From Rhizobiaceae bacterium (lineage in GTDB: Bacteria; Pseudomonadota; Alphaproteobacteria; Rhizobiales; Rhizobiaceae), in assembly GCA_040880025.1 (NCBI GenBank), contig JBBDJD010000007.1, forward strand, positions 64,035 to 128,034: a DNA stretch of 64,000 nt. The letters run 5' to 3'. The stretch's first letter is position 1; the number at the start of each line of letters is the position of its first letter. Positions 20,198-39,061 of this stretch are shown here, in pieces. A program made the position numbers and the translations under genes. Below the pieces are notes generated by a model. It worked only from the letters and a program-made list of their open reading frames with translations. It searched no databases and had not been told where the DNA came from.

Positions 20198-21055
20198 ATG
20201 AGACCATATCTGGAGAAGCTGCCGATCTTTCCCGATGCGTCGTGGAGTTACCTCAACCGCCGTCTTGACGACGGGATTCCGTTCCAGTGGCACCACCACC
20301 CCGAATACGAGCTTACACTGACGCTCAATTCGCGCGGCCAGCGCTTTATCGGCGATCATGTCGACGCCTATGGCGACGCCGACCTGGTGCTGGTCGGCCC
20401 GAACCTGCCGCATACATGGATGTCGCGGGAGAAACTCGACGCCGCGCAACCGCATATCGCGCTGGTGCTGTGGTTTCATCCCGACTGGGCGGCGCGGCTG
20501 ACGCAGGGCCTGCCCGAATTCCGCAACGTGCAGTCGCTGCTCGCGCGGGCCGGATGCGGCCTGAAGTTCTCCGAATCCGCCACAGATACGGTTCGCGCCG
20601 ATCATGAGGCGATCTTCGATCTGCCGCCGCCGGAGCGGCTGCTTTCGCTGTTGCGCATCCTCAACCGTCTGGCGGCCGACAAGGAGGCCCGGCCTTTGGC
20701 GAGCGTGCCGGTCCTGCAGCAGGGGGCGCCGGAAAGCCGCGAGCGGATCGACCGCGTGGTGACGCATATCCATATCAACTACACGGAGCAGATATCGCTG
20801 ACCGAACTCGCCGGCATCGCGGCACTGAGTGCGTCGGGACTGCACCGGCTTTTCGCCAGGCACATGCAGACCACCGTGAGCGACTACATCATGCGCATGC
20901 GCATCGGCGACGCATCGGCGCGGCTGTCCGGCACCGACCAGACGATAGGGTTCATTGCGGAAGCCGTCGGCTATCGCGCGCTGTCCAATTTCAACCGGCA
21001 ATTCCGCGCGCTCAAGGGCATGTCGCCGCGCGCCTATCGCCGATTGTTTCGATAA
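20198..21055 (+). CDS. AraC family regulator with cupin sensor domain
   Basis: WHHHPEYELTL N-terminal cupin; C-terminal GY..LSNFNRQF...GMSP. Confidence 0.93.
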   Translation: MRPYLEKLPIFPDASWSYLNRRLDDGIPFQWHHHPEYELTLTLNSRGQRFIGDHVDAYGDADLVLVGPNLPHTWMSREKLDAAQPHIALVLWFHPDWAARLTQGLPEFRNVQSLLARAGCGLKFSESATDTVRADHEAIFDLPPPERLLSLLRILNRLAADKEARPLASVPVLQQGAPESRERIDRVVTHIHINYTEQISLTELAGIAALSASGLHRLFARHMQTTVSDYIMRMRIGDASARLSGTDQTIGFIAEAVGYRALSNFNRQFRALKGMSPRAYRRLFR

Positions 21056-21137
21056 TCCGGCCCCGGTCGTCCAACCGTATTGCGCGGCGGCCGGACATCG
21101 TTCACGCTTGGGGCCGTGTCGAGCATGGGAGGTTGAG

Positions 21138-22328
21138 TTGAATATTCAGGGGAAGAATCCGGACCGCGTCGCGGTTCCGTTCGATGCGGATCACGCCGAC
21201 CGGCTGATGGAAGAGGCCGGCATCGACGTGCTGCTCGCCACCTCCAAGCACAACACGCAATATCTGCTCGGCGGGTACAGGTTCATCTTCTTCGTGGCGA
21301 TGGACGCGATCGGCCACAGCCGCTACCTGCCGGTCGTGGCGTATGAAAAGGGCCGGCCCGACCGCTCGGCCTATATCGGCAACCGGATGGAAGGCGGCGA
21401 GCACGAGAACCACCCGTTCTGGACGCCGACGCTGCACCCCGCGACATGGACGTCGCTGGAGGCGGCGGAACTTGCCGTCGGGCACATCAGGAAGATCGGC
21501 AAGGAGAATGCGCGCATCGGCATCGAACCCGGTTTCCTGCCGGCCGACGCCTACCAGTACATTACGGCCAAGCTGCCGAACGCGACCTTCGTCGACGCCA
21601 CCGGTATGCTGGAGCGGCTGCGCGCCATCAAGACGCCGGAAGAGCTGGCGCAGCTGAAGCATGCGTCGGAGATGATCACCGACTCCATGCAGGCGACGAT
21701 CGCCGCTTCGGGCGAGGGTTCCACCAAGGCGGAAATCATCGAGCGGCTGCGGCAGGAGGAGACGAAGCGCGGCCTGCATTTCGAGTATTGCCTGCTGACG
21801 CTGGGTTCCAGCCACAACCGGGCATCCTCGGGCCAGGCATGGAAGAAGGGCGAGGTGCTTTCGATCGATTCAGGCGGCAATTATCACGGCTATATCGGTG
21901 ACCTGTGCCGGATGGGCTTGCTTGGCGAGCCGGACGCCGAACTGGAGGATCTGCTGGCGGAGGTGGACACCGTTCAGCAGGCAGCGTTCTCGAAGGTGAA
22001 GGCCGGCGCCGCTGGCGGCGATCTCGTCACAGCCGGGCAGGAGCGGTTGAAGGGATCGTCGATTGCCCGCTTCACCGATTTCTTCGCACACGGCATGGGT
22101 GTGATCACGCATGAGGCGCCGTTCCTGATGACCAATCACCCGGTTACCTATGAAGGCGTCGATGCGGACCGCCCGCTGCAGGCCGGGATGGTGATCTCGG
22201 TCGAGACGACGATGCTTCACCCCAAGCGCGGCTTCATCAAGCTGGAAGACACGCTGGCGATCACCCAGAACGGCTACGAGATGTATGGCGAGCGCGGCCG
22301 CGGCTGGAACCGGGGCGGGACGGCTTAG
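21138..22328 (+). CDS. M24 (Xaa-Pro peptidase/creatinase-like) hydrolase
   Basis: LRAIKTPEE; metal ligands D(IDSG), D(GDLCR), H(HGMG), E(SVET), E(LEDT); TTG start with ggagg RBS. Confidence 0.85.
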   Translation: MNIQGKNPDRVAVPFDADHADRLMEEAGIDVLLATSKHNTQYLLGGYRFIFFVAMDAIGHSRYLPVVAYEKGRPDRSAYIGNRMEGGEHENHPFWTPTLHPATWTSLEAAELAVGHIRKIGKENARIGIEPGFLPADAYQYITAKLPNATFVDATGMLERLRAIKTPEELAQLKHASEMITDSMQATIAASGEGSTKAEIIERLRQEETKRGLHFEYCLLTLGSSHNRASSGQAWKKGEVLSIDSGGNYHGYIGDLCRMGLLGEPDAELEDLLAEVDTVQQAAFSKVKAGAAGGDLVTAGQERLKGSSIARFTDFFAHGMGVITHEAPFLMTNHPVTYEGVDADRPLQAGMVISVETTMLHPKRGFIKLEDTLAITQNGYEMYGERGRGWNRGGTA

Positions 22329-22343: not shown

Positions 22344-23237
22344 TTACAGCCTGATCCGCCCGAACGGGTTCCAGCGCACGGTGCCGAGGCGGATGCGCTC
22401 GCGCGCTACTGTCAGCAGGCCGGAGCCGGCGATGACGGCGAGACCCGCGAGCGACCAGACGTCCGGCTGTTCGTTGAACAGCAGCGCGCCCAGCAGCACC
22501 GCCCAGGCGATCTGCGAGTAGTGCGTCGGCGCGAGTTGGTTGGCCGGTGCGAACTTGACCGCGCGCATCAGCAGGATGTGCCCGGCGGCGGCCCCGGCGC
22601 CCGCGACGAGCAGGATCAGCGCTTCGCGCCAGTCCGGCAAGTGGAATCTGGTCGCGGAGACCGCCGCCCCGTTGAACAGCACCCCGTAGACAATGAGATA
22701 GCCGAGGATCGTCGTGGTTCGCTCGCGCGGGGCGAGCGAGCGCATGAGGATGATGCTCGATGCGCTGAGCAGCGCCATCGTGAGCGCCGCGGCATGACCG
22801 AGTTCAAGCCCCCGGAATCCCGGCCGCACCACGAGCAGCACGCCGGCAAAGCCGATGGCCACGGCAGCCCAGCGCCAGCGCCCGATCTGTTCTTTCAGCA
22901 GGATCATCGACAGCAGCGTCACGAACAGCGGCGACAGGAAGGCCAGGGCATAGACCTCCGCGAGCGGGATCGTTGTGAAGGCGAACACGCCGATGACACT
23001 TGCAACGAGCCCGACGATTGCCCGCGTCTGCACTGCGACCGGGTACTTCATGCGCCAGAAATCGCGCCAGCCATGGCCGTCCGGCCGAGTCAGCAGAAGG
23101 AGCAGGCCGCCGGCGATCGACATCTGGAAAAAGCCGATCTCGAAGACGGTCATCGAGCCGCCGAGCGCCTTGATCGCGGCGTCGCTCCACGCATAGGTGG
23201 CGTAGGCGAACAGCGCCAGGAGAATGCCGTTTGTCAC
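22344..23237 (-). CDS. DMT/EamA family transporter
   Basis: About 10 TM segments, duplicated EamA repeat, FLSPLFV and PTHYSQI motifs; start uncertain (23237 GTG or 23270 ATG). Confidence 0.85.
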   Translation of the reverse strand: MTNGILLALFAYATYAWSDAAIKALGGSMTVFEIGFFQMSIAGGLLLLLTRPDGHGWRDFWRMKYPVAVQTRAIVGLVASVIGVFAFTTIPLAEVYALAFLSPLFVTLLSMILLKEQIGRWRWAAVAIGFAGVLLVVRPGFRGLELGHAAALTMALLSASSIILMRSLAPRERTTTILGYLIVYGVLFNGAAVSATRFHLPDWREALILLVAGAGAAAGHILLMRAVKFAPANQLAPTHYSQIAWAVLLGALLFNEQPDVWSLAGLAVIAGSGLLTVARERIRLGTVRWNPFGRIRL

Positions 23238-23363
23238 TTGAAGTTGTCCCGCAACGAAAGCACCGCCCATGTGGACGGCGCGAATCGGATCACAGCCGTT
23301 GGTCTGTTGGCCGCTTAGCCGAAATCGAACCCGCTTGCATCCGGCTTTCGTTAGGGATCGGCT

Positions 23364-23780
23364 TCAGCCTCTCGGCGGGATCAGCCTGAAATCGGGCAGG
23401 TCGCGCAACGCCTGTTCCGGGCCGGCTGGCGAATAGACCACGAAGAGCTGCATCGGTCCTGCGCCGGTGTTCAGCGTCGAGTGATAGCGACTTTCGGGCA
23501 CATAGACGGTACAGCCAGGGCCGACCTTTTGCGTGACAGGGTTGCCGTTCTCGTCCTCCACCATCTGCTCGCCCTCTCCGGAAATCACGAAGATGATCTC
23601 TTCGGCGCCCGGATGGTTGTGCCGTTCATGGCCCTGGCCCGGCTTCACGTCGACGACGCCGCCGGAGAAGCGCTGTGCGCCGTTGACCTCCGGCGCGACG
23701 GTGAGCGAAAGGCGGCCCCAGTCGAAGCCGAACGCGCTCACATCCTTCGGATAAACGAACTTTTCTCCTTCGCCGCTCAT
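23364..23780 (-). CDS. Cupin domain protein
   Basis: GHERHNHPGAEE...YVPESRYHSTLN cupin motifs 1 and 2. Confidence 0.9.
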   Translation of the reverse strand: MSGEGEKFVYPKDVSAFGFDWGRLSLTVAPEVNGAQRFSGGVVDVKPGQGHERHNHPGAEEIIFVISGEGEQMVEDENGNPVTQKVGPGCTVYVPESRYHSTLNTGAGPMQLFVVYSPAGPEQALRDLPDFRLIPPRG

Positions 23781-23792
23781 GTTTTCCTCCCG

Positions 23793-24632
23793 CTATCTGG
23801 TCTTGATCGGCAGTTTCTTGAAATCGGTGGTCTGGTCGCGGATCGCGGCTTCGGCCGGCAGCCGCTCCATCGAGCTTGCCCCGTAGAAGCCGTGGCAGAC
23901 CGCGCAATGGTCGAGAATGTAGCGCGCGTCGTCGGGCATCGAGATCGGTCCGCCGTGGCAGATGACCATGACGTCCTCGCGCACGGAGCGCGCGGCCTCC
24001 GATATCGCATCGATCTCGGCAACGCAGCTGTCGAGCGTCTTGGCCGAAGTCGCGCCGATCGAGCCGCCGGTGGTGACACCCATATGAGCGACGATGATAT
24101 CGGCGCCGGCTTTCGTCATCGCCTTCGCTTCGTCGGCATTGAAGACGTAGGGCGTGGTCAAAAGGTCAAGCTCGTGGGCGGCGGCGATCATGTCGACCTC
24201 GAGCCCATAGCCCATGCCGGTCTCCTCGAAAGCGGTGCGCATCGTGCCGTCGAACAGGCCGATTGTCGGAAAGTTCTGCACGCCGGAGAAGCCCATCTCT
24301 TTCAGCTCGGCCAGGAATTGCGGCATCAAGACGAAAGGATCGGTGCCGTTGACGCCGGCGAGCACCGGCGTGTTCTTGACCACCGGCAGTACCTCGACCG
24401 CCATCTCCTTCACGATCTCGTTGGCGTTGCCATAGGCAAGCAGCCCGGCGGCCGAGCCGCGGCCCGCCATGCGGTAGCGGCCGGAATTGTAGATCACGAT
24501 GAGGTCGATGCCGCCGGCTTCCTCGGCCTTGGCCGACAGGCCGGTGCCCGCGCCGCCGCCGACGATCGGAACGCCTTCCGCTATCATGGCGCGGAAGCGT
24601 TCGAGGATTTTCTTGCGCGGGATCGCGGGCAT
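23793..24632 (-). CDS. TIM-barrel 'phosphoenolpyruvate hydrolase-like'/TBST family protein (homologous to the Tm-1 C-terminal region)
   Basis: GAGTGLSAK...[38 protein letters not shown]. Confidence 0.88.
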
Positions 24633-24640
24633 TCAGGCTC

Positions 24641-25837
24641 TCACTGTATTGCGATTTCGAGGAAGGCGGCCACTGCCGCCCGAGCGAATTCCGGGTCATT
24701 GACGTGCAGCGGCAGGCGGACGATGCGGCGATCGTCTGTCTTCCTCGCGGTGGCCTCAAGCGCATCGAACAGGGCTGCGTCGGCGACAGGGTCGAAGAAC
24801 GCGCCGCCTTCGACATCGAGCGCCGATACACCCTTTTCCGGGATCAGGAATCGCACCGGCCCGTCGCAGGCGTTGAGCTTTGATCCAATCCACTCGCCGA
24901 TGTCGCGGCACTCGTCCGCCGTGGTCCGCATCAGCGTGACGTTGGGATTGTGCTTGTAGAGATTGCGGTCTTGGTAGCGCTGGGGAATCGTGTCCGGCGC
25001 CCAAAAATTGACCATGTCGAGAGCACCGGCCGAGCCGACATAAGGAATGCGCGTACGGGCGATGGCTCCAAAGCGGTCTTCGGTCGCGGGCAGCACGCCA
25101 CCCAACAGGAAGTCGCAGACCTCCGTTGTCGTGATGTCGATGACGCCCGTCAGCATGGCGCCGTCGGCGAGCTTCTCCATCGTGCGGCCACCGGCGCCGG
25201 TGGCGTGAAAAACCATGCAGTCGTAGTCCCCGCGGAGCTGCTCCGCGATGGCGGTCACGCAGGGTGTGGTGACCCCAAACATCGTCAGCCCGATCGCCGG
25301 CTTGTCCTCGGTCTTCGGAGCCGGATTCGCAGCCATCGCCGCGATCGCCTGGCCGGCATTGTGCAGGATGACGCGACTCAGTCGGTTCAAGCCCGCGATG
25401 TCGGTCACCGACGGCATCATGACGATGTCGGAGACGTCGACATAAGGCGCGGTGTCGCCGGAGGCGAGGGTCGAGACCATGATCTTGGGAACGCCGTAGG
25501 GCAGGCGGCGCATGCCGGCGGTTATGATTGCCGTGCCGCCGCCGCCGCCCAGTCCGATCATGCCTGCAATATCATTACGGGAGGCGGCGAAACTGGAAAA
25601 GGCCTCCGACATGGCCGCGACGGCCGCGCCGCGATCGTCAGTCCCGAGCGCTGCATCCGCCCCTTTGGGATGATGCCCCGCCACCTCGCCGGCGCCGATA
25701 TCGACCGGTATCGCCGGCGTGCGCGTACCGACGTCGACGAGCAGCGGATCGCCGCCCGCGGCGCGTATGACGCCGGCAAGATAGGCCAATTCCTCGCCTT
25801 TGGTGTCGGCAGTGCCGACGACGTAGATGCGCGCCAT
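24641..25837 (-). CDS. Tm-1-like ATP-binding domain protein (UPF0261)
   Basis: GTADTKGEE, GGGGT, FGVTTPCV, FHATGAGG, ALDMVNF, HVNDPEFA. Confidence 0.9.
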   Translation of the reverse strand: MARIYVVGTADTKGEELAYLAGVIRAAGGDPLLVDVGTRTPAIPVDIGAGEVAGHHPKGADAALGTDDRGAAVAAMSEAFSSFAASRNDIAGMIGLGGGGGTAIITAGMRRLPYGVPKIMVSTLASGDTAPYVDVSDIVMMPSVTDIAGLNRLSRVILHNAGQAIAAMAANPAPKTEDKPAIGLTMFGVTTPCVTAIAEQLRGDYDCMVFHATGAGGRTMEKLADGAMLTGVIDITTTEVCDFLLGGVLPATEDRFGAIARTRIPYVGSAGALDMVNFWAPDTIPQRYQDRNLYKHNPNVTLMRTTADECRDIGEWIGSKLNACDGPVRFLIPEKGVSALDVEGGAFFDPVADAALFDALEATARKTDDRRIVRLPLHVNDPEFARAAVAAFLEIAIQ

Positions 25838-25862
25838 TCCTCCTCCACCGCCGCAGCGCCGT

Positions 25863-25899
25863 CACGAAAGGCATTGCAATTTCGTGAGACGCGCGTATC
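25863..25899. promoter_or_regulatory. Candidate TetR operator(s)
   Basis: CACGAAA-N10-TTTCGTG and near-palindrome GAGAC-GCGC-GTATC in the 70-bp divergent gap. Confidence 0.4.
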
Positions 25900-25907
25900 G
25901 TATTGAT

Positions 25908-26540
25908 ATGGATGTCTCACGTCAACAACATGCGGAGGAAGCCCAGCGGGGGCCGCGGGCCAGGACGCGCCGGCTGATGCTGGAGACTGCGACACGTCTC
26001 ATGCAGGACGGCAAGACGCCCTCTGTGAGCGAAGTGGCGGAGGCGGCGGAAGTGTCACGTGCGACGGCTTACCGCTACTTCCCCAGCCAGGCGGCTCTGG
26101 TTCACGCCGTGGTCGACGAGGCATTGGGGCCGATCCTGACCTGGAGTTCCGCATCGAGTGATGCCGGCGAGCGGGTCGAAGACCTGTTCCGCAGTTCGAT
26201 GCCGCGCATAGGCGAATTCGAGGCCACGTTTCGCGCCGCGCTGAAACTGTCGCTCGAACAGGCGGCGCAGGGCGATGGAGGAGCGGAACCCGAACCCAGA
26301 TTCACGCGCGGCCATCGAGTCGATCTTTTGAGAGATGCGCTGCGTCCGCTGCGGGGCGCTATGCCGCCGAAACAAGTCGACCGGCTGGCTCAAGCGCTGT
26401 CGCTGCTGTTCGGCGTCGAAGCGCTGATCGTGCTGAAGGACATATGGGGCATGGACGAACGGCAGGCCTATTCGGTGGCGGAATGGGCCGCGTTGTCGCT
26501 CGTTCAGGCTGCCACGGCAGGAGGACAGGGCAGCGTATAG
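25908..26540 (+). CDS. TetR/AcrR family regulator
   Basis: SVSEVAEAAEVSRATAYRYFPS HTH. Confidence 0.92.
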   Translation: MDVSRQQHAEEAQRGPRARTRRLMLETATRLMQDGKTPSVSEVAEAAEVSRATAYRYFPSQAALVHAVVDEALGPILTWSSASSDAGERVEDLFRSSMPRIGEFEATFRAALKLSLEQAAQGDGGAEPEPRFTRGHRVDLLRDALRPLRGAMPPKQVDRLAQALSLLFGVEALIVLKDIWGMDERQAYSVAEWAALSLVQAATAGGQGSV

Positions 26541-26551: not shown

Positions 26552-26568
26552 ATCTGGTTAGACCAGAT
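26552..26568. promoter_or_regulatory. FadR/GntR-type operator A1
   Basis: ATCTGGT-TAG-ACCAGAT palindrome; its 12-nt core CTGGTTAGACCA recurs at 39138-39149. Confidence 0.7.
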
Positions 26569-26715
26569 CAATTGAGTTTATGTGCGATGCGGACCGAAGC
26601 CGGTGACGCATGGCAGGGGTATCTTGCCGACATTTCTCTTGGGAAAATCGTTTGAAATGTCGATAATCCCGGTGAAGTGAAGCGAAAAACCGAAAGGCGA
26701 ATCGTAGAGAAGGGC

Positions 26716-26748
26716 CTTGACGAAGCTTTGAGTTTGGTAATACCAGAT
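26716..26748 (+). promoter_or_regulatory. Sigma70-type promoter overlapped by operator B1
   Basis: CTTGAC followed by TTTGGTAATACCAGAT (26733-26748), which is 15/16 identical to 39315-39330. Confidence 0.65.
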
Positions 26749-26905
26749 TGGAAGTGGAGGCCGTGGAGGTAAGGGCCGGCATCACGATCTGGATGCGGAA
26801 TTTGGAAACAGGGTGCGACCGGAACCCAGACAGGGTCCGGCAGCGCCCGCAAGAGGCGCCATGCCGGCCGACGCGCTGGCGGAGTGCAAAACGGGAGGAA
26901 TGAAC

Positions 26906-28216
26906 ATGCGCAAGAAACTGACCGGTCTCGTGGCCGGACTAGCCTTTACGCTTGCCTGCGGAACCTCGGCGTTCGCGCAGGAGCTGACAATCTTCTGGGC
27001 CGAATGGGATCCCGCCAACTACCTGCAGGAACTCGTGAACGAGTATGAAGCCGAAACCGGCGTGAAGGTCACGGTGGAAACCACCCCGTGGTCGGACTTC
27101 CAGACGAAGGCATTCACCGAGTTCAACGCGCGGGGTTCCGCGTACGACATGGTTGTCGGCGATTCGCAGTGGATCGGCGCGGCTTCCGAATCTGGCCACT
27201 ATGTCGACCTGACCGACTTCTTCAACCAGCACAATCTGACCGAAGTCATGGCCCCGGCAACGGTCAAGTACTACGCCGAGTATCCATCGAACTCGGGCAA
27301 ATACTGGTCGATCCCGGCCGAGGGCGACGCGGTTGGCTGGTCCTATCGCAAGGACTGGTTCGAGGACCCGAAGGAGATGGAAGCGTTCAAGGCCAAGTAT
27401 GGCTACGATCTCGCCGTGCCGAAGACCTGGGCCGAGATGCGCGACATCGCGGAGTTCTTCCACCGTCCGGACGACAACCGCTACGGCATCGCCATCTACA
27501 CCGACAACTCCTATGACGGTCTGGTGATGGGCGTCGAGAACGCCATCTTCTCCTATGGCGGCGAGCTTGGAAACTACGAGACCTACGAGGTCGACGGCAT
27601 CATCAATTCGGAAGAGAACGTCAAGGCGCTCGAGATGTATCGCGAGCTCTACGGCTTTACCCCTCCGGGCTGGGCCAAGACCTTCTTCGTCGAGAACAAC
27701 CAGGCGATCACCGAGAACCTGGCTGCGATGAGCATGAACTACTTCGCCTTCTTTCCCGCGCTGGTGAACGAGGCGTCCAACCCCAATGCCGCGAATACCG
27801 GCTTCTTCGCCAATCCGGCGGGTCCGGGCGGCGACCAGTTCGCCGCACTCGGCGGTCAGGGCATCTCGATCGTGTCCTATTCGGAGAACCAGGAAGAGTC
27901 CTTCAAGTTCCTCGAATGGTTCATCAAGGACGATGTCCAGAAGCGCTGGGCGGAACTCGGCGGCTACACGGCGAGCGCCGCCGTGCTGGAATCGGATGAA
28001 TTCCAGAACGCAACGCCGTACAACAAGGCCTTCTACGAGACCATGTTCAAGGTGAAGGACTTCTGGGCGACGCCGGAATATGCCGAGCTGCTGATCCAGA
28101 TGAACCAGCGCATCTATCCGTTCATCACGGCGGGCGAAGGCTCGGCCAAGGAGTCGCTGGACGCGCTTGCCGCGGACTGGAAGGCGACGTTCGAGAAGTA
28201 CAACCGTTACGAGTAG
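26906..28216 (+). CDS. CUT1 sugar ABC transporter substrate-binding protein
   Basis: Signal peptide; SBP_bac_1-like pattern (YDMVVGDSQW, YRKDWF, PKTWAE); heads a permease/ATPase operon. Confidence 0.92.
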   Translation: MRKKLTGLVAGLAFTLACGTSAFAQELTIFWAEWDPANYLQELVNEYEAETGVKVTVETTPWSDFQTKAFTEFNARGSAYDMVVGDSQWIGAASESGHYVDLTDFFNQHNLTEVMAPATVKYYAEYPSNSGKYWSIPAEGDAVGWSYRKDWFEDPKEMEAFKAKYGYDLAVPKTWAEMRDIAEFFHRPDDNRYGIAIYTDNSYDGLVMGVENAIFSYGGELGNYETYEVDGIINSEENVKALEMYRELYGFTPPGWAKTFFVENNQAITENLAAMSMNYFAFFPALVNEASNPNAANTGFFANPAGPGGDQFAALGGQGISIVSYSENQEESFKFLEWFIKDDVQKRWAELGGYTASAAVLESDEFQNATPYNKAFYETMFKVKDFWATPEYAELLIQMNQRIYPFITAGEGSAKESLDALAADWKATFEKYNRYE

Positions 28217-28306
28217 CGGGGGCAATCTGCGAGGGGGCGGCAGTTTGCTGCCCCCTTGCTTCATTCTGCGGGCCATGCCCGTCATCGGCAAGGGAAGGAG
28301 TAGGGT

Positions 28307-29212
28307 TTGGCCAGCTTGGCTATGACGACGCTGGATCCGCGCTCGCGCGCCGCACGGCGCGGATGGAGCGACCTGACGATCCGCAACGCGTTCATTATCC
28401 CCACGATCGTCTTCCTGATCGTCTTCAATATTTTCCCGCTGCTTTATTCGCTCGGATACTCCTTCACGGATTTCCGCGCCTCGAGCAACGCGCCGGCCAA
28501 TTTCGTCGGGCTCGCGAACTACAAGGCGCTGCTCAACGACCCCTTCATCTGGCGCAACTTCGCGATCACGGCGAAATACGTGATCGTGTCGGTGGCCGGG
28601 CAGGTGGTCGTCGGCTTCGGCGTCGCGATGCTGCTCAACAGGACGATCCCCTTCAAGGGACTGATCACTACACTTCTGCTTTTGCCGATGATGCTGTCCA
28701 TGGCCGTGGTCGGGCTGTTCTGGAAACTGCTCTACGATCCGTCCTTCGGCATCATCAATTATGCGCTAGGCCTCGGCCGTTTCGAATGGCTGTCCAACCC
28801 GGACATGGCGCTCTACGCGGTGGCGATCACCGACATCTGGATGTGGTCGCCCTTCGTGATGCTGCTTTCGCTGGCCGGCCTTTCGGCCGTGCCCAAGCAT
28901 CTCTACGAGGCGGCGGCGATTGACCGGGCGGGGACGTATTACACCTTCTTCCGCATCACGCTGCCGCTGGTGGCGCCGATCCTGATGATCGCGATCATCT
29001 TCCGCACAATGGAAGCGTTCAAGACGTTCGACCTCGCCTACATCCTGACCAGCCAGCCGACCACCGAGGTTATTTCCATCCGGCTCTACAAGATGGCCTT
29101 CCAGGAGTGGCAGACCGGCATGTCGTGCGCACTGGCCTACATCATGCTGATCATGGTCGTGGCGATCACCAACATCTACGTGAAGTACCTGAACAAGGTG
29201 AAGGAGCGCTGA
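28307..29212 (+). CDS. Sugar ABC permease (MalF-like)
   Basis: NFVGLANY, EAAAID..FFRITLP EAA motif. Confidence 0.93.
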   Translation: MASLAMTTLDPRSRAARRGWSDLTIRNAFIIPTIVFLIVFNIFPLLYSLGYSFTDFRASSNAPANFVGLANYKALLNDPFIWRNFAITAKYVIVSVAGQVVVGFGVAMLLNRTIPFKGLITTLLLLPMMLSMAVVGLFWKLLYDPSFGIINYALGLGRFEWLSNPDMALYAVAITDIWMWSPFVMLLSLAGLSAVPKHLYEAAAIDRAGTYYTFFRITLPLVAPILMIAIIFRTMEAFKTFDLAYILTSQPTTEVISIRLYKMAFQEWQTGMSCALAYIMLIMVVAITNIYVKYLNKVKER

Positions 29213-29213
29213 G

Positions 29214-30173
29214 GTGGCTGCAGTAAGGACAACCTCCGAAGTCGCGCTCAACAGGCTGGCGATTGTCGCTGTCCTGGTCGTGACCATTATCTTCCTGGCG
29301 CCGATCTATTGGATCACCGCGACGGCATTCAAGCCCCGGAACCTCGCCACGACGATCCCCCCAACGGTCATGTTCGAGCCGGAGATATCGCCGTTCGTGA
29401 AGCTGTTCCTTCGGCGATCGCAGTTGCGCGAGCAGCCGACGGCGGAAGAATACGAGGCGGCGCCGTGGTGGGAACGCCTGGTGTTCGACGGCGGTGAGAA
29501 GGTTGTGCGTGACGGCAGGGGCGAGGTCCAGCTGTCCGGCTATCCGGACCGCTTCACCAATTCGCTGATCGTTGCGGTTGTGTCGACGGTGCTCGCCGTC
29601 GGCATGGGGACCTTGACCGCCTACGGCTTCTCGCGATTCAAGGTGGCGGGCGAACAGGACTGGCTGTTCTTCATATTATCGACGCGAATGCTGCCACCCG
29701 TCGTGGTGGCGATTCCGATGTTTCTGATGTACCGGGTGTTCGGCCTGAACGACACCCATATCGGGCTGATCATTCTCTATACGGCATTCAACATTTCCTT
29801 CTCGGTCTGGCTGATGAAGGGCTTCATCGACGAGATCCCCAAGGAGTACGAGGAAGCGGCACTTGTCGACGGCTATACGCGCATGCAGGCCTTCTTCAAG
29901 GTGGTGCTGCCGGAGGCCGCTACAGGCATCGCGGCAACCGCCGTCTTCTGCTTCATCATCGCCTGGAACGAATATGCCTTCGCGCTGATCATGACCAACA
30001 GGCGCGCGCAGACGGCGCCACCCTTCATTCCAAGTCAGGTCGGCTCGGGTCTGCCTGACTGGACGGTCATTGCGGCCGGCACCTTCCTGTTCCTGCTGCC
30101 GGTGGCCATCTTCACATTCCTCCTGCGCAACCATCTGCTCAGGGGCATGAGCTTCGGAGCAATCCGCAAATGA
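29214..30173 (+). CDS. Sugar ABC permease (MalG-like)
   Basis: EEAALVDG EAA motif, WNEYAFA. Confidence 0.93.
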   Translation: MAAVRTTSEVALNRLAIVAVLVVTIIFLAPIYWITATAFKPRNLATTIPPTVMFEPEISPFVKLFLRRSQLREQPTAEEYEAAPWWERLVFDGGEKVVRDGRGEVQLSGYPDRFTNSLIVAVVSTVLAVGMGTLTAYGFSRFKVAGEQDWLFFILSTRMLPPVVVAIPMFLMYRVFGLNDTHIGLIILYTAFNISFSVWLMKGFIDEIPKEYEEAALVDGYTRMQAFFKVVLPEAATGIAATAVFCFIIAWNEYAFALIMTNRRAQTAPPFIPSQVGSGLPDWTVIAAGTFLFLLPVAIFTFLLRNHLLRGMSFGAIRK

Positions 30174-30427
30174 GTTTCCGCGAACTCAACCGCCGCTTTC
30201 TCGAACCGGGCTCCATGTGGGTGATGATTTTCGGCATCGTGGCTTTGTGCCAGCCGTGGAACTTCCTGCTGCACCGTTACGGCGTCACCATCATCATCGT
30301 CGGCCTGATCGGATTCATCATCACATCGCATATCGGACCCGGCTCGGTCGGCGCCGAGGACGATGTGGAAGACGAGGCGTTCGACGTCTCCGACCACCGC
30401 GAGGGCAAGGCCGGGGGTCGCACATGA
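30170..30427 (+). CDS. Small two-TM membrane protein with acidic tail
   Basis: ATGA overlaps on both sides; hydrophobic core and EDDVEDE tail. Confidence 0.75.
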   Translation: MSFRELNRRFLEPGSMWVMIFGIVALCQPWNFLLHRYGVTIIIVGLIGFIITSHIGPGSVGAEDDVEDEAFDVSDHREGKAGGRT

Positions 30428-31527
30428 CGCATATCGAGCTTCGCGGCGTCCAGAAATGGTTCGGCAGCAACCAGGTTATCAAGGACATGAACCTGGAAAT
30501 CGCCGGCAACGAGTTCATCGTCATGCTTGGCCAGTCGGGCTGCGGCAAGACGACGACGCTGCGCGCCGTCGCGGGACTTGAGACCATCGACGAAGGCGAC
30601 ATCCTGATCGACGGCAAGCGGGTTCAGCACCTCAAGGCGTCGGACCGCGACATCGCGATGGTGTTCCAGTCCTTCTCGCTCTACCCGCACATGACGGTCT
30701 ATGAGAACATCGCCTTCCCGCTTCGAGCCACCCGGCTGAGCAAATCCGACATCGACCGGTCGGTGCGCGAGGTTGCCCGCGTGCTGCGCATCGCCGACCT
30801 TCTGCAAAGCAGACCGTCCGCGCTGTCGGGCGGCGACATGCAGCGCGTGGCGATTGGCCGGGCGCTCGTGCGTCAGCCGAAGGCGATGCTGATGGATGAG
30901 CCGATTGGCGCATTGGACACCAAGCTGCGCGAGGAAATGCGCGCCGAGATCAAGCGGCTGCACCTGAGACAAGGATCGACCACGATCTATGTCACTCACG
31001 ACCAGGTGGAGGCGATGAGCCTGGCGGATCGCATCGTCATCATGCATGAGGGGGTGCTTCAGCAGGTGGGAACGCCTGAAGAGGTTTATTCCGATCCGCA
31101 GAACCTCTTCGTTGCCCAGTTCGTCGGCAGCCCGGTGATGAACGTGACGGATGCCCGCATTACCGAGGAAGGTGGCGCGGTGCGGGTGCATCTCGATCCC
31201 AAGGACCCCGGTTTCGAGTTTCCGCGGGAGCTGCTTTCCAAGCTCAATGGACACATATCGGGCGGATTGTCGCTGGGCATCAGGCCGGAGGGCCTGCTCG
31301 TGTCGCGGGAGGCGAAATCCGGTTATGTGCCGCTCGAGGCGGGCATCATCGAACCGCTAGGCTCGCACGATATCGTCGACCTCAAGGTTGGCGACGGCAT
31401 GATACGGGCACGCACGCCGGCAGGCTTCGTGCCCAAGGTGGGGGAGAAGGTGCATACGCGCATCGATCCCGCGCAGGCGCATTTCTTTGACACCGGCAGC
31501 GGCAAGTCCCTGGGAGTAAGGCTCTAG
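30424..31527 (+). CDS. Sugar ABC ATP-binding protein (MalK-like)
   Basis: GQSGCGKT, LSGGDMQR, LMDEP, YVTHDQ, TOBE-like tail. Confidence 0.95.
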   Translation: MTHIELRGVQKWFGSNQVIKDMNLEIAGNEFIVMLGQSGCGKTTTLRAVAGLETIDEGDILIDGKRVQHLKASDRDIAMVFQSFSLYPHMTVYENIAFPLRATRLSKSDIDRSVREVARVLRIADLLQSRPSALSGGDMQRVAIGRALVRQPKAMLMDEPIGALDTKLREEMRAEIKRLHLRQGSTTIYVTHDQVEAMSLADRIVIMHEGVLQQVGTPEEVYSDPQNLFVAQFVGSPVMNVTDARITEEGGAVRVHLDPKDPGFEFPRELLSKLNGHISGGLSLGIRPEGLLVSREAKSGYVPLEAGIIEPLGSHDIVDLKVGDGMIRARTPAGFVPKVGEKVHTRIDPAQAHFFDTGSGKSLGVRL

Positions 31528-31529
31528 CG

Positions 31530-32606
31530 ATGGCTCATATCGAGCTCAGAAACATCACCAAGGTCTTCGGCGGGAAGTCGGCGCTGAAGGGACTGGATCT
31601 CGAAATCGAGGACGGTCAGTTCTTCGTTCTTCTGGGCGAGACCGGCGCCGGCAAGACCACGACGCTGCGCATCGTCGCGGGGCTGGAAAAGCCGACCGAG
31701 GGCGAGGTCCTCATCGATGGCGTCAACGTCAACGACTGGGGCGCGGCGGAGCGCGATGTGGCGCTGGTCCTGCAGCAATACTCGCTCTACCCGCGCTATA
31801 CCGTGCGGGAGAATCTGGAGTTTCCGCTCAAGTCGAAAATCCGCCGCGTCGAAGCGGCCGATATCGAAGGGCGCGTCAACCGCGTCGCCGAGACGCTGCA
31901 GATCGGACATCTGCTTGACCGCAAGACCGACAAGCTGTCCGGCGGCGAGATGCAGCGCGTCTCGATCGGCCGGGCCATCGTGCGCCAGCCGCGCGTGTTC
32001 CTGATGGACGAGCCGCTGTCGGCGCTCGACGCCAAGCTTCGCGAGGCGCTGCGCACCGAACTCAAGAACCTGCAGATGAATTTGGGCGCCACCTTCCTGT
32101 TCGTCACGCACGACCAGGTCGAAGCGCTGTCGATGGGCGACCGTATCGGGGTCCTCGACAGCGGCAAGCTGGTGCAGGTGGGCACGCCCGCGGAAGTCTA
32201 CGGCAATCCGAGAAACACTTTTGTGGCGCGTTCCGTCGGCTCGCCGCCGATGAACCTGATCGACGGAACGCTGTCGGGCGGACAGGCGGTGGCCGAGGCC
32301 GGTTTCAGCCTGCCGGTTGCCGCGAAGGCCAATGGCTCGACCGATGGCCGGCCGCTGACGTTCGGCATCCGTCCGGAAGACATGTTCCTCGCCCCCGGCG
32401 CGCCTGCTGCCGCGGAAGTGCACGATATCGAGAACCATGGCGTCGCCAAGATCGTGACGCTGCGCGCCGGCGACATGATGCTGCGACTCACCACGTCGGC
32501 GCGTGAGAAGCTCTCGATAGACGAAGCGGTGCGTTTTTCCTGGAATCCGGAGAAAGTCGTTCTGTTCGACAAGACCAGCGGGTTGAGCCTACGCCACAAT
32601 GCCTGA
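31530..32606 (+). CDS. Second sugar ABC ATP-binding protein
   Basis: GETGAGKT, LSGGEMQR, LMDEP, FVTHDQ. Confidence 0.95.
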   Translation: MAHIELRNITKVFGGKSALKGLDLEIEDGQFFVLLGETGAGKTTTLRIVAGLEKPTEGEVLIDGVNVNDWGAAERDVALVLQQYSLYPRYTVRENLEFPLKSKIRRVEAADIEGRVNRVAETLQIGHLLDRKTDKLSGGEMQRVSIGRAIVRQPRVFLMDEPLSALDAKLREALRTELKNLQMNLGATFLFVTHDQVEALSMGDRIGVLDSGKLVQVGTPAEVYGNPRNTFVARSVGSPPMNLIDGTLSGGQAVAEAGFSLPVAAKANGSTDGRPLTFGIRPEDMFLAPGAPAAAEVHDIENHGVAKIVTLRAGDMMLRLTTSAREKLSIDEAVRFSWNPEKVVLFDKTSGLSLRHNA

Positions 32607-35240: not shown

Positions 35241-36224
35241 TCAGACCGCAACGTCAGGAAACCGCTTCCGGTAGGCGTCCAGCACTTCGGGATTGCAGAA
35301 ATTGAGCGGCAATTGACCGGCGAGAACACGCGCGGCTTCCTCGGCCGCCCCTATCCCCATGCGCCGCATGCTGCCCTCGGTGATGCCGGCCATATGCGGC
35401 GTCACAATTACATTGTCGAAGCTGAAATACGGATGACCCGGCGGCAGCGGCTGGGTGGCGAAAACGTCGAGCGCGGCCCCGCCGATGCGATTTTCCCTGA
35501 GCGCCGCGATCATCGCGTCGTCGTCGATGACCGGTCCGCGCGACGGGTTGATGATGAGCGCCGTCGGCTTCATCAGCCCGAGCAGCCGCGCATCGACCAG
35601 CCCGCGCGTCTCTTCGGTGAGCGGGCAGCAAAGGGCGATGATGTCGGACTTGGCGGCGAGTTCGTCCAGTTCAACGAAGCGGGATCCGGCCGGCGCGTCG
35701 CGCCTGCTGCGGCTGTGGATCAGAACGTCGAGGCCGAAGCCGTGCACCCCGATGTCACACACCCGCCGCCCGATATTGCCGAAACCGATGATGCCCAGCG
35801 TGCGCCCGTCGAGGTCGCCCGCGAGGTCTGCCTGGCGTCGGGCAACGGCCCAGCCCTCGCTTCGCAGTTCGCGGTCGAGAATGCGGAAGCGGCGCAGCAG
35901 CGTCATTGCGGCGAAGAATACATATTCGGCGACGGTGCGCGCGTTGACGCCCGGCGTGTTTGCAACCAGCACGCCGGCGTGGTTGGCGGCCTGCATCGGG
36001 ATCATGTCGAGCCCGGCGCCGTGGCGGATTGCCGCGCGCAACCCGGAGGCCCGTTCGAACAATGCCGGCGGAAGCGGCGCCCGGACTATCAGGATATCCG
36101 CCCCGGTTCCCTCGCGCAGCAAGGTGTCAGGATCGGGCGCGGAGGCGAAACGCAGGTCGCCCAGCTTCGCCAGCATTGCCGCCGCGTCGGGATGCAGATT
36201 ATGCGTGGAGAATATTTCCGGCAC
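35241..36224 (-). CDS. D-isomer-specific 2-hydroxyacid dehydrogenase
   Basis: HGAGLD, GIIGFGNIG, INPSRG, DVF..PL, TPHMAG. Confidence 0.93.
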   Translation of the reverse strand: MPEIFSTHNLHPDAAAMLAKLGDLRFASAPDPDTLLREGTGADILIVRAPLPPALFERASGLRAAIRHGAGLDMIPMQAANHAGVLVANTPGVNARTVAEYVFFAAMTLLRRFRILDRELRSEGWAVARRQADLAGDLDGRTLGIIGFGNIGRRVCDIGVHGFGLDVLIHSRSRRDAPAGSRFVELDELAAKSDIIALCCPLTEETRGLVDARLLGLMKPTALIINPSRGPVIDDDAMIAALRENRIGGAALDVFATQPLPPGHPYFSFDNVIVTPHMAGITEGSMRRMGIGAAEEAARVLAGQLPLNFCNPEVLDAYRKRFPDVAV

Positions 36225-36229
36225 GGCGC

Positions 36230-36946
36230 CTACGCGTTTTCGAGTTCCGGGCTGGGCTTGCCCGCGCCCGGACCGCGGATGAGGCCTTTCCAGTAGCTTT
36301 CGGCGCCCTGCAGATGCGCGCTCATCAGCGCCTGGGCGAGGTTGCCGTCGCGGCGCACAAGCGCCTCGAAGATCTGGATATGCTCGGCATGCGAGCGCCG
36401 CCCGCGTTCGGGATCGGAGAAATAGACCGGCAGGCGCTGTTCGCCCATCACGTAATAGATGCTGCAGATTTTGTGGAACACGCTGTTCTTGGTCGCCCGG
36501 ACGATCTCCAGATGAAAATCGCGATCCTCGCGTGCGAGCGGCTCGCCCGCTTCGACCTTCTTCTCCGAGATTGCCAGGATTTCGCGCAGTCGTTCGAAAT
36601 TCTCCTCCGTCGCGCGGCTGCAGGCCAGTTCGGCGGCCTTGATCTCGTGGATCTTCCGCAATTCCACCGTTTCGTAGATCTGGATCGGATCAAGCGGCAG
36701 GCCGGCTTTCGCGAACAGCGCCAGTGCCTCGACGCTGGTATCGGTGGTGGTCAGATAGATGCCGGATTTGGCGCGGCGCTCCACGATGCGCATGGCCTCC
36801 AATATGGCGAGCGCCTCGCGTATCTGGCCGCGGCTGACGGAAAAATGCTCGGCCAGTTCGCGCTCGGAAGGCGTGCGGCCCTTTTCCGTATTGGAATAGG
36901 TGTAGAGATACGCCGCGAGATCGGGCAGCAGACTGTTTTCTTTCAT
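36230..36946 (-). CDS. FadR-subfamily GntR regulator (FCD)
   Basis: PSERELAEHFSVSRGQIREAL wHTH; DRDFH...SHAEH..I FCD. Confidence 0.92.
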   Translation of the reverse strand: MKENSLLPDLAAYLYTYSNTEKGRTPSERELAEHFSVSRGQIREALAILEAMRIVERRAKSGIYLTTTDTSVEALALFAKAGLPLDPIQIYETVELRKIHEIKAAELACSRATEENFERLREILAISEKKVEAGEPLAREDRDFHLEIVRATKNSVFHKICSIYYVMGEQRLPVYFSDPERGRRSHAEHIQIFEALVRRDGNLAQALMSAHLQGAESYWKGLIRGPGAGKPSPELENA

Positions 36947-36948
36947 CG

Positions 36949-38118
36949 TCAGCAGCTTTGCGCGTGTTTCTCCACGAAACGCTCGGAGATCGTGAAGCCC
37001 AATCCTGGAGTCTCGGGAATCGCAACCATACCATCCTCCGCCTTTACGGTCTCCCCAATCAGATCATGGATCATCGGATTAGCGCCGAGCGAGAATTCGA
37101 TGACGAAGCTGGCCGGAGATGCGGCGCAAACATGCAAGCCGGCGAAGAAGCATGGGGCGCCGGCCCAAAGATGCGGCGCCAGGCGCAGGTTGAACGCGCT
37201 GGCGATCGCACCGATGCGCATCGCTTCGGTAATGCCGCCGCAGAAGGCCGGATCGGGCTGGAAAATGTCGGCGGCGCGCAGCACCGCGAGTTCGCGGAAG
37301 GCGAACCGCGTCGCCTCGGACTCGCCGGCCGCGATCGGCACCGGGCCCGCGGCGCGGACCTCCGCCATGCCGCGCTTGTCGTCCGCGATCACCGGCTCCT
37401 CGAACCAGGCGAGGTCGCAATCGGCGACCATGTGGATGAACCGCTTGGCATCGGCGACCGTGTAGGTGCCGTGCGCATCGACCATGAGATCGACATCCGG
37501 CCCGATCGCGTCTCGCGCGGCGCGCACGCGGGCGGCCGAGACGTGGGGCGCGCCGTCCATCGCGCCGACCCGCATCTTCACGGCCTTGAAGCCACCCGAC
37601 TTGATGTAGGAGTTGAGCTGATCGCCGATGCCGCCGGCATCCGCCCAGCCTCCGGAGGCATAGGCCGGCAGACGCTCGGCCTTGCGTCCGCCCAGAAGCT
37701 GCCAGACGGGCTGTCCCAGCGACTTGCCCAGAATATCCCACAACGCGATGTCGACCGCGCTGATGGCGGCGATCGTCAGCCCCCGGCGCGACAATTCCGG
37801 CATGGCGTGACCCGCCTCGGCCGCGAGTTCGCTGCGCACGCCGTTATAGATCGAATCCCAGATCGCGCTGATGTCGCCGGCATGGCGGCCGACGAGCATC
37901 GGGCCGATCTCGTGGTTGATCAGGTGAACCAGCGTGCCATAGATGCCGGCGCTGCCCGCCGCGTTCTTTCCTTCGCCCCAGCCGACGAGGCCATCGTCGG
38001 TCTCGATGCGCACAATGGCGGAGTCGAATGTCCGCAGGCGGCCGAAATCGCTGCGATGCTGACGCTTCGCCTCGATCGGGATCTTGACCCACCACGCCTG
38101 AACCTTGTTGATGCGCAT
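36949..38118 (-). CDS. Mandelate racemase/muconate lactonizing enzyme (enolase superfamily)
   Basis: GWGE, VDIALWD, KAVKMR, MVDAH, FEEP, GE, HLW. Confidence 0.93.
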   Translation of the reverse strand: MRINKVQAWWVKIPIEAKRQHRSDFGRLRTFDSAIVRIETDDGLVGWGEGKNAAGSAGIYGTLVHLINHEIGPMLVGRHAGDISAIWDSIYNGVRSELAAEAGHAMPELSRRGLTIAAISAVDIALWDILGKSLGQPVWQLLGGRKAERLPAYASGGWADAGGIGDQLNSYIKSGGFKAVKMRVGAMDGAPHVSAARVRAARDAIGPDVDLMVDAHGTYTVADAKRFIHMVADCDLAWFEEPVIADDKRGMAEVRAAGPVPIAAGESEATRFAFRELAVLRAADIFQPDPAFCGGITEAMRIGAIASAFNLRLAPHLWAGAPCFFAGLHVCAASPASFVIEFSLGANPMIHDLIGETVKAEDGMVAIPETPGLGFTISERFVEKHAQSC

Positions 38119-38173
38119 GTCGCTCACCGCATTGGCGACGCTGGCGCGCCGCCAACTCCCGCCGGCCTGACGG

Positions 38174-39061
38174 CTATTTCATCAACGGCAGAAGAGTTTC
38201 CGCCGTGATGCGCATCTGGTCGGTGTAGAACTTTTCGGTCAGCACGCTGGAGCCGTGGTCCTGGATGAACTTCAGCTGCTCGGGCGAGATGTCGACGGGA
38301 TTGCGCTCGACCATGTCGGGATACCGATTGGCTGGCGTGCGGTCCACCGGCGCGACGAATTCGTTGGTCAGCGCGCCGTCATAGCCGATATCCTTGAGGA
38401 TGCCGACGATCCTCTTCCAGTCGATCGTGCCGAGCCCGGCGGCGAAGCGGTTGTTGTCCGCGACATGGAAGTCGAACAGGCGCTTGCCGGCCGTGCGGAT
38501 CGCCTCCTCCACATCGAACTCCTCCATGTGGATATGGTAGGCGTCGAGGCAGACACCGCATTCGGGGCTGACGGCGTCGGCCAGCGCCATGGCCTGCTCG
38601 CCGCGGTTGAAGAGATATGTCTCGAAGCGGTTGAGCGGTTCGACCGCCACCCGCACCCCGACTTTCTTGGCATGGGTGAAGCATTCGCGGGTCGCGTCCA
38701 CAACCCAGCCCCATTCCTCTTCCTCGGTGCCGTCAGGCACCACCTTGCCGACGGTGGCGGGCACCAGCGTGATGATTTCGCCGTCGATCTCGCTGACCAT
38801 GGTGAGCACGTCCTTGACGTATTGAACCGAGCGTTCGCGCTGGCCCTGGTCTCTTGCCGCGAGATTGCGTTCGCCCAGCATCAGCGTGACCGCGCCCCAG
38901 CAGCGAATGCCATGTTCCTTCAGGAGGGCGCGGGTCTCATTGGTCTTGTACTGCTCTGGCTCGCCGGAAATCTCGATCGACTCGTAGCCGAATTGCTTGA
39001 TCCGCTTCAACGTCACTTCCAGCGGTTCGGCGCGCATCCAGTTGTGCGTCGAAAGATGCAT
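38174..39061 (-). CDS. Sugar phosphate isomerase/epimerase (xylose-isomerase-like TIM barrel)
   Basis: VEPLNRFE, LDAYH, FHVADNNR, TNEF metal ligands. Confidence 0.9.
   Translation of the reverse strand: MHLSTHNWMRAEPLEVTLKRIKQFGYESIEISGEPEQYKTNETRALLKEHGIRCWGAVTLMLGERNLAARDQGQRERSVQYVKDVLTMVSEIDGEIITLVPATVGKVVPDGTEEEEWGWVVDATRECFTHAKKVGVRVAVEPLNRFETYLFNRGEQAMALADAVSPECGVCLDAYHIHMEEFDVEEAIRTAGKRLFDFHVADNNRFAAGLGTIDWKRIVGILKDIGYDGALTNEFVAPVDRTPANRYPDMVERNPVDISPEQLKFIQDHGSSVLTEKFYTDQMRITAETLLPLMK

Follow-up and report, generated by a model that had tools for sequence, protein, structure and literature searches.

Gene organization and proposed function

The window analyzed in this study is a 64,000-nt stretch of contig JBBDJD010000007.1 from a Rhizobiaceae bacterium (sediment metagenome source), and all positions are window coordinates unless a locus is named. 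Three open reading frames (ORFs) between 23364 and 25837 lie in the same direction on the minus strand and encode, in order, a UPF0261 protein, a TIM barrel protein and a cupin. We propose that they encode a kinase and an enzyme converting a phospho-metabolite. The two would serve an inducible route for the breakdown of a carbohydrate-derived compound, and the cupin would be an accessory enzyme confined to certain lineages. We give this reading a probability of roughly 0.5. It is favored because the UPF0261 protein MarK is an active kinase whose ATP and acceptor residues are kept here, and because UPF0261 and the barrel are tightly paired, fused in eukaryotes and co-evolving (PMC5028733). It is further favored because the barrel is also fused to an unrelated APH kinase in sugar-acid operons, because its closest folds are phosphoenolpyruvate (PEP) mutase/isocitrate lyase enzymes and its β7–β8 region resembles a phosphate loop, and because barrel sensor domains and metabolic genes occur beside the pairs.

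The first gene (24641..25837, minus strand) encodes a UPF0261/Tm-1-like ATP-binding protein of 398 amino acids (aa), a putative ATP-dependent small-molecule kinase. The second gene (23793..24632, minus strand) encodes a PF09370 TIM barrel of 279 aa ("PEP hydrolase-like" or TBST), and the third (23364..23780, minus strand) encodes a monocupin of 138 aa with a complete metal site. A TetR-family regulator (25908..26540, plus strand; 210 aa from ATG 25908) is encoded divergently. The gaps are 8 nt (24633–24640) between UPF0261 and the TIM barrel and 12 nt (23781–23792) between the TIM barrel and the cupin. The ORFs are exactly as the first-pass annotation of this DNA had described them, with three tightly spaced genes and a divergent TetR, and its domain assignments hold.

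In the proposed mechanism, UPF0261 would act as an ATP-dependent small-molecule kinase whose ATP site and acceptor pocket correspond to those of MarK. The PF09370 barrel, which has a putative phosphate-binding loop and may belong distantly to the PEP mutase/isocitrate lyase superfamily, would bind and convert the phosphorylated product, probably by metal-stabilized enolate chemistry (C–C cleavage, decarboxylation or phosphoryl rearrangement). The metal cupin may catalyze an accessory step such as isomerization or decarboxylation; elsewhere, its place in the gene order is occupied by an SRPBCC protein. TetR would bind GATAC-N4-GTCTC over the operon promoter and be released when a pathway metabolite appears. 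The most likely substrate is an acid or keto compound derived from a carbohydrate, which the neighboring sugar-acid gene set, under separate GntR control, would import or produce.

The UPF0261 protein and its relation to MarK

The UPF0261 protein matched the Pfam families PF06792 (N-terminal, 201 bits) and PF23189 (C-terminal, 303 bits) with a cut-off of 27. It scored 708.5 bits (cut-off 648) against NF002675 of NCBIfam, an "equivalog" model of hypothetical proteins. The best PDB match was the N-terminal region of tomato Tm-1 (3WRY, E = 1.8e-99), and MarK (9MPY) was matched with E = 5.8e-55, so that Tm-1 is by far the nearer relative of the two. The AlphaFold2 model had a predicted local distance difference test score (pLDDT) of 75, and its only real Foldseek matches were Tm-1 and MarK. 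The nucleotide-binding motif G-T-x-D-T-K is present as VVGTADTKGEE, with the lysine equivalent to Tm-1 K20 and MarK K16. D11-T12-K13 of this motif and H211 are invariant in a family alignment of 30 sequences that includes tomato tm-1, and H296 is conserved in at least 90% of its rows.

MarK (Saro_1862 of Novosphingobium aromaticivorans) is a stand-alone UPF0261 protein that phosphorylates acetovanillone and other phenols with ATP, releasing ADP (Hall et al. 2025, PMC12624787). This was called the first catalytic activity of the UPF0261 domain, and the ATP-site residues D14/T15/K16 and the acceptor residues G195, H219 and H304 of MarK are highly conserved (PMC12624787). The window protein shares the fold and the ATP-site residues, and it keeps the three acceptor residues as G188, H211 and H296. 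However, the two proteins are only about 31% identical and three substrate-contact residues differ. MarK also acts alone as a homodimer, whereas the window UPF0261 is paired with a TIM barrel.

The likeness to MarK raises the alternative of an aromatic kinase system, in which UPF0261 would phosphorylate a plant phenolic and the cupin or SRPBCC protein would bind or cleave the ring. Phenol phosphorylation is the only proven UPF0261 activity, and the phenol contacts G195, H219 and H304 are those retained here. Aromatic ligands are common among the families to which the alternative third genes (cupin, SRPBCC) belong, and Liv-type ATP-binding cassette (ABC) systems accompany the pair in other lineages. 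We nevertheless consider this alternative unlikely, as the window UPF0261 is nearer to Tm-1 and has other residues in place of H348, F283 and I285 of MarK. In addition, no TIM barrel is partnered with MarK, and the transporter encoded nearby is of the sugar-type CUT1 class. The MarK gene clusters with the acetovanillone carboxylase genes acvCDEF, whereas no biotin carboxylase or phosphatase genes of such a pathway were found in the 20 kb surrounding the window UPF0261 gene.

The TIM barrel protein

The TIM barrel protein matched PF09370 over the full length of the profile (positions 1–267, 429 bits). The best PDB match was 2P10 (E = 4e-125), which is Mll9387 of Mesorhizobium loti, and the agreement is at the level of an orthologue. 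This structural-genomics entry was deposited as "putative phosphonopyruvate hydrolase", a name that is a prediction only, and no paper on Mll9387 was found in the literature searched. The AlphaFold2 model (pLDDT 96.7) matched 2P10 in Foldseek with a template modeling (TM) score of 0.94 and a root-mean-square deviation of 1.0 Å. The next matches were 2-methylisocitrate lyase, carboxy-PEP mutase, dimethylmalate lyase and PanB with TM scores of about 0.6; for the first three, the E-values were 1e-10 to 1e-8 and the TM scores 0.55–0.61. These four enzymes either act on phosphates resembling PEP or stabilize the enolate forms of keto or hydroxy acids.

D43, D98 and D178 were invariant in the barrel alignment and E145 was near-invariant. 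The C-terminal half of the barrel (β5–β8) aligned weakly with phosphate-binding barrels. Within it, the β7–β8 segment "ICHGGPI ... GFYGASS" showed a similarly weak alignment to the loops that bind phosphate in nitronate monooxygenase and archaeal triosephosphate isomerase.

Relatives of the barrel formed approximately 3,300 clusters at 50% identity in a search of 1.84 billion cluster representatives. Fusions of the barrel with UPF0261 occur in plants, in the charophyte Closterium and in the ichthyosporean Chromosphaera. Other fusion partners are an APH-type kinase, a sigma-54 activator, an AraC DNA-binding domain and a glyoxalase. The barrel–APH fusions (L084, 6270–8162; L086, 4068–5906) sit inside sugar-acid operons, and the APH kinase fold is unrelated to UPF0261. 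The fusion operon of L084 contains genes for apionate lactonase, apiosidase, HpcH aldolase, an FAD oxidase and short-chain dehydrogenases/reductases (SDRs).

Directly upstream of some UPF0261 and barrel pairs are genes for regulators, a sigma-54 activator and an AraC protein, that have a PF09370 barrel as their N-terminal domain (L081–L083 from Acetobacterium wieringae, 8001–12146; L085, 657–4132). Since barrel copies serve as regulator sensor domains beside the pairs, the barrel probably binds a small molecule of the pathway. These fusions fit the pattern expected if a duplicate of a pathway enzyme has been recruited by a regulator as its ligand sensor. Taken together, the barrel evidence suggests that the ligand of the barrel is a small metabolite, probably phosphorylated, and that the barrel can cooperate with any kinase that accompanies it. 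The different kinase partners, the sensor-domain copies and the phosphate-loop motif narrow the search to a kinase and an enzyme for a phosphorylated metabolite.

The same regulators could be taken to mean that the pair is a signaling unit, in which the barrel would be a ligand sensor controlling a regulatory UPF0261 ATPase and not a metabolic catalyst. The sensor role of PF09370 in sigma-54 and AraC regulators agrees with this and gave rise to the older name "TIM-barrel signal transduction". However, the sensor copy sits beside a separate UPF0261 and barrel pair, which is the usual arrangement for a borrowed enzyme copy. The pair itself has no output domain, MarK is a true enzyme, and the operon has its own TetR. 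A signaling role is therefore improbable.

The kinase and converting-enzyme reading also has an analogy in the DUF1537 systems. Acid-sugar kinases of this family reportedly form pairs with decarboxylases or RuBisCO-like enzymes (OtnK/OtnC, OiaK), as Zhang in 2016 and Carter in 2018 are said to have described. There too, a kinase is followed by an enzyme for a phosphorylated keto acid, among dehydrogenases and xylose-isomerase-like proteins, and similar contexts recur around the UPF0261 and barrel pair and the barrel–APH fusions. The DUF1537 pairs have no sequence or fold relationship to the UPF0261 and barrel pair, and the likeness is one of analogy, not of family membership.

Several other barrel arrangements were seen. 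Barrel proteins of about 400 aa were considered as TIM–cupin fusions, and this was rejected; they are AraC, glyoxalase or unassigned fusions. L091–L093 (4064–7861) have the order LysR, MFS, barrel, barrel, UPF0261, barrel, with three PF09370 paralogues and one UPF0261. Next after the Acetobacterium pair come genes for an FGGY kinase and for a BcrAD/DUF2229 protein of 1411 aa. In a plasmid collection, the barrel was present on 243 plasmids, mostly megaplasmids of Rhizobium/Sinorhizobium; the copies on plasmids of haloarchaea (Haloarcula, Haloferax, Haloterrigena) are about 59% identical.

Pairing and gene neighborhoods across 80 loci

One genome per species was scanned with a 10-sequence barrel alignment, which yielded 80 loci with barrels 67–91% identical to the query. 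These loci span the alpha-, beta- and gamma-proteobacteria, Acidobacteriota, an actinomycete and Verrucomicrobia. UPF0261 is encoded directly upstream of the barrel on the same strand in 72 of the 80 loci, with a median gap of approximately 10 nt. The other genes are less constant: a divergent TetR was found at 27 loci, including gamma- and beta-proteobacteria, and an SRPBCC protein no more than two genes downstream of the barrel at 19. The cupin, which the first-pass annotation had counted as part of the module, is present in the window and directly follows the barrel in 30 of the 80 loci, so it is not a constant member. The whole block (five-gene CUT1 ABC operon, TetR, UPF0261, barrel and cupin, often with an M24 hydrolase) is kept in about 30 loci.

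Other lineages have other settings. The pair occurs with a Liv-type ABC system and an amidohydrolase (in some cases with a flotillin), with xylose-isomerase-like, rhamnose-mutarotase and SDR genes, or with a MocR regulator. Across the loci, the neighbors of the pair are transporters, dehydrogenases, xylose-isomerase-like proteins, hydrolases and regulators. The earlier suggestion of an enzyme in an uncharacterized sugar pathway fits these neighborhoods.

The tight pairing bears on a further alternative, a two-subunit phosphotransferase similar to pyruvate phosphate dikinase or PEP synthase. UPF0261 would then be only the ATP-binding phospho-donor, perhaps through a phospho-histidine, and the barrel would be the acceptor-binding catalytic subunit that turns an enolizable keto acid into an enol phosphate. 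The enzymes structurally nearest to the barrel bind PEP- or pyruvate-like ligands. In L087 (1251–3952), a distant barrel is encoded just after a 608-aa protein with a PEP-utilizer mobile domain. The two sites of MarK are 25 Å apart, with the invariant histidine H219 (here H211) at the acceptor site. The fusions, the co-evolution and the 67–91% barrel identity across phyla fit an obligate complex. On the other side, MarK phosphorylates its substrate without a TIM partner and yields ADP, not AMP, and the PEP-utilizer neighborhood was seen only once. G188, H211 and H296 of the acceptor pocket are conserved in the window UPF0261, which therefore probably has its own acceptor site. We regard the two-subunit phosphotransferase as possible but rather unlikely. 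Only tentatively might UPF0261 and the barrel form an obligate ATP-dependent enzyme of an undescribed type (phospho-relay or enol-phosphate-forming), an analogue of pyruvate phosphate dikinase built from unrelated parts. The substrate of such an enzyme would be a single metabolite shared by plants, fungi, archaea and bacteria, and the antiviral activity of tomato Tm-1 would be moonlighting of a conserved metabolic enzyme.

Several observations weigh against a kinase paired with a converting enzyme. The earlier statement that the function of the bacterial pair is not established stands in that no published function was found in the literature searched, although it had missed the activity of MarK. 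The MarK substrate contacts H348, F283 and I285 are replaced by L340, M275 and N277 in the window UPF0261, and because these three residues differ, its acceptor cannot be deduced from MarK. In MarK itself, the ATP and acceptor sites lie about 25 Å apart and the phosphotransfer mechanism is not settled (PMC12624787). A search of PDB sequences with the barrel profile retrieved no PEP mutase/isocitrate lyase enzymes, and at an identity of only 15–19% no counterparts of their catalytic residues could be assigned among the conserved acidic residues of the barrel. The neighborhoods are heterogeneous (sugar-type, Liv-type ABC with amidohydrolase, MocR, peptidases), so a single substrate class is not established and the sugar context is easily over-read. 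As the ABC and TetR operons carry different operators, the argument for one pathway is weakened. Finally, 3 of the 80 loci hold the barrel and cupin without an adjacent UPF0261.

In these three loci (L021, L022 and L027; 8001–9300), the barrel and cupin occur with the ABC genes, and with TetR in L022 and L027; UPF0261 is not directly upstream and was either lost or relocated. Another six loci (L040, L061, L070, L071, L074 and L075; about 8750–10600 in each) have a flotillin/SPFH gene of 560–700 aa between the barrel and the SRPBCC gene in the same operon. They come from a Fodinicurvata genome, a Dongiaceae metagenome-assembled genome and several betaproteobacteria. A flotillin is unexpected in a metabolic cluster.

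Relation to tomato Tm-1 and defense

Tomato Tm-1 contains the same two domains in the same order, and its D-T-K ATP motif is kept in the window UPF0261. The UPF0261 protein is 42% identical to residues 10–429 of tomato tm-1 and the barrel is 61% identical to residues 483–754. The two alignments are collinear, which bears out the earlier assignment of the genes as a split Tm-1. Tm-1 is one fused protein, whereas the window has two genes 8 nt apart with no sign of an antiviral role; a stop codon and the 8 nt separate the two ORFs, which do not form one polypeptide. The split arrangement is not new. In bacteria, archaea and fungi, each Tm-1 domain has a gene of its own, and the two genes co-evolve (Yang et al. 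2016, PMC5028733); the NCBI product names already read "Tm-1-like ATP-binding domain-containing protein" and "phosphoenolpyruvate hydrolase family protein".

Among the genes that protect plants from viruses, Tm-1 is a classic example, and one for which no native function has been determined. Because both halves of tomato tm-1 are so similar to the bacterial proteins, plants and bacteria probably share the underlying chemistry. Identification of the substrate would assign a function to two widespread families, and the locus is valuable in pointing to a setting and an approach for determining what Tm-1 natively does.

The first-pass annotation had also raised a defense role. As an anti-phage or antiviral unit, the pair would be analogous to tomato Tm-1, which blocks tobamovirus replication by binding the viral replicase; this homology is the only point in its favor. 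PADLOC gave no match for UPF0261, the TIM barrel or the cupin and only a marginal helix-turn-helix match for TetR, and no homologue was found in 50,697 phage records. In the comparison of sugar genes with defense islands that had been proposed as a check, none of the 80 neighborhoods resembles a defense island, and all are metabolic or transport-related. In addition, the resistance residues of Tm-1 are a recent adaptation within Solanum (PMC5028733). A defense function is thus highly improbable.

The TetR regulator and its candidate operator

The TetR protein matched PF00440 (TetR_N, helix-turn-helix) with 33.7 bits against a cut-off of 24. Its ORF is listed from 25827. The most likely start is ATG 25908, which gives 210 aa, compared with 213 aa for the Sinorhizobium meliloti orthologue. 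With this start, the divergent intergenic region is 70 nt long.

A 16-bp imperfect palindrome, O1 (TGAGACGCGCGTATCG, 25885..25900), was found by phylogenetic footprinting and has the core GATAC-N4-GTCTC. Of 28 TetR/UPF0261 intergenic regions, 23 contain this core with at most one mismatch, among them those of Erwinia, Providencia and Pararobbsia, whereas only 0.009 occurrences per 156 nt are expected from the background. An operator-like copy, O2 (TGATATGGATGTCTCA, 25904..25919), spans the TetR start codon and is conserved in about half of the Rhizobiales loci. A consensus scan predicted a sigma-70-like promoter of the UPF0261 operon (TTGACG-17-TACGAT, 25897..25925, minus strand), which overlaps O1 and O2. 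The conserved motif overlaps the −10 element of this promoter, and the promoter/operator block TTGACGTGAGACATCCATATCAATACGATACGCGCGTCTCA is conserved as a whole in orthologues. An operator over the −10 element is the classic TetR arrangement.

On this comparative evidence, GATAC-N4-GTCTC at 25885–25900 is a conserved candidate operator for TetR. It would offer a direct handle for inducer screening. Candidate operators had previously been placed at 25863–25899, a stretch with two features, the conserved motif and the perfect palindrome TCACGAAA-N10-TTTCGTGA (25862..25887). This 8-N10-8 palindrome is unique in the window and lineage-specific. It is absent from L001 and other orthologous loci and was rejected as an operator.

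The ABC operon and a probable GntR-type regulon

Pfam matches define a CUT1-type ABC importer operon at 26900..32606 on the plus strand. It encodes a substrate-binding protein (26900–28216) whose PDB relatives are sugar-binding proteins, two permeases (28307–29212 and 29214–30173) and two ATPases (30217–31527 and 31530–32606), all on the plus strand. Two GntR/FadR-type operators, TGGTTAGACCA (26555–26565) and TGGTAATACCA (26735–26745), lie 180 bp apart upstream of the operon (26555..26745). Their motif TGGT-N3-ACCA has four exact matches in the window against 0.32 expected, in two pairs with a spacing of about 180 bp. The second pair (39139–39149 and 39317–39327) is located between the two divergent operons of the partner genes described below. 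At least 20 orthologous loci, and S. meliloti as well, have the motif ahead of their gene for the substrate-binding protein.

The ABC operon thus shares its operator with sugar-acid genes about 12 kb away, a GntR/MR-MLE/xylose-isomerase-like set at 38–40 kb. The partner genes as a whole occupy 35241..41812 (Pfam). Those on the minus strand encode a 2-hydroxyacid dehydrogenase, a GntR/FCD regulator (36230–36946), an MR/MLE dehydratase and a xylose-isomerase-like protein; those on the plus strand encode a xylose-isomerase-like protein and a GFO/IDH/MocA oxidoreductase. They adjoin the ABC operon in the same order on S. meliloti pSymA. From the sequence, the two TGGT-N3-ACCA pairs look like one GntR/FCD regulon that is conserved on pSymA, and the shared operator would therefore place the transporter in a GntR-type sugar-acid regulon.

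Control of the ABC operon by TetR was rejected, since no TetR-type operator was found upstream of the substrate-binding protein gene and the operators there are GntR-type. The ABC operon is probably not under TetR; it appears to be linked physically to the Tm-1-like operon and controlled separately. This weakens the link between the operon and the adjacent sugar ABC regulon that had been drawn in the first-pass annotation.

Between the ABC operon and the 2-hydroxyacid dehydrogenase gene, a GST-like gene, a 101-aa ORF and an alpha/beta-hydrolase–LuxR fusion occupy 32744–35014. These genes look like an insertion, because S. meliloti pSymA lacks them at that position. An 85-aa ORF with high GC content at third codon positions (30170–30427) overlaps the listed start of the first ABC ATPase, and S. 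meliloti is annotated there with a 70-aa hypothetical protein and a 369-aa ATPase. Given this overlap and annotation, the first ATPase probably starts after 30217.

The orthologous locus of S. meliloti

S. meliloti 1021 carries SMa1334-SMa1332-SMa1331-SMa1329, TetR and the ABC operon on pSymA in the same gene order and with the same GntR-type operators. SMa1334 is the UPF0261 orthologue, SMa1329 is the linked M24 peptidase, and the TetR gene is presumably SMa1335. Identity with the window is 70–88% for TetR, UPF0261, the TIM barrel, the cupin, M24 and the substrate-binding protein. In S. meliloti, M24 directly follows the cupin, whereas in the window an EamA gene follows the cupin and M24 is convergent.

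The only published test of the locus showed that alfalfa symbiosis was normal with a polar SMa1334 insertion (PMC3462710). The SMa1334 reporter fusion was silent on rich LBMC medium and in nodules (PMC3462710). This silence is what would be expected of a repressed catabolic operon and is consistent with a catabolic function. The same putatively TetR-controlled operon (SMa1334-SMa1329) is thus available in genetically tractable rhizobia, where a mutant and a reporter fusion exist.

The cupin and the genes downstream

The cupin matched PF07883 (Cupin_2) with 58 bits, and its start is preceded by a strong Shine–Dalgarno sequence, GGGAGGA. Both cupin motifs are complete (G48-X5-H-X-H-X4-E-X6-G68 and G89-X5-P-X-S-X2-H-X3-N104), and the metal ligands read in the translation are H54, H56, E61 and H100. 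The best PDB matches were oxalate-decarboxylase-like bicupins (E = 7e-12) and cupin sugar-phosphate isomerases.

An EamA-family transporter gene (22344..23270, minus strand; Pfam) begins 93 nt downstream of the cupin and is possibly co-transcribed with it in this window. Among the loci compared, an EamA gene follows the cupin only here and in L002. The M24 hydrolase gene (20955..22328, plus strand; Pfam) encodes an Xaa-Pro peptidase/creatinase-like protein that matches prolidases in the PDB, with a probable start near 21132. In 17 of the 20 loci that hold M24, it is no more than three genes from the TIM barrel, and it is on the same strand in about seven. In the window, a PhyH-family dioxygenase gene (minus strand) and an AraC regulator gene precede M24 (19140–22328 for the three). 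Because of these two genes, M24 may be under AraC control here and not co-transcribed with the cupin as in S. meliloti.

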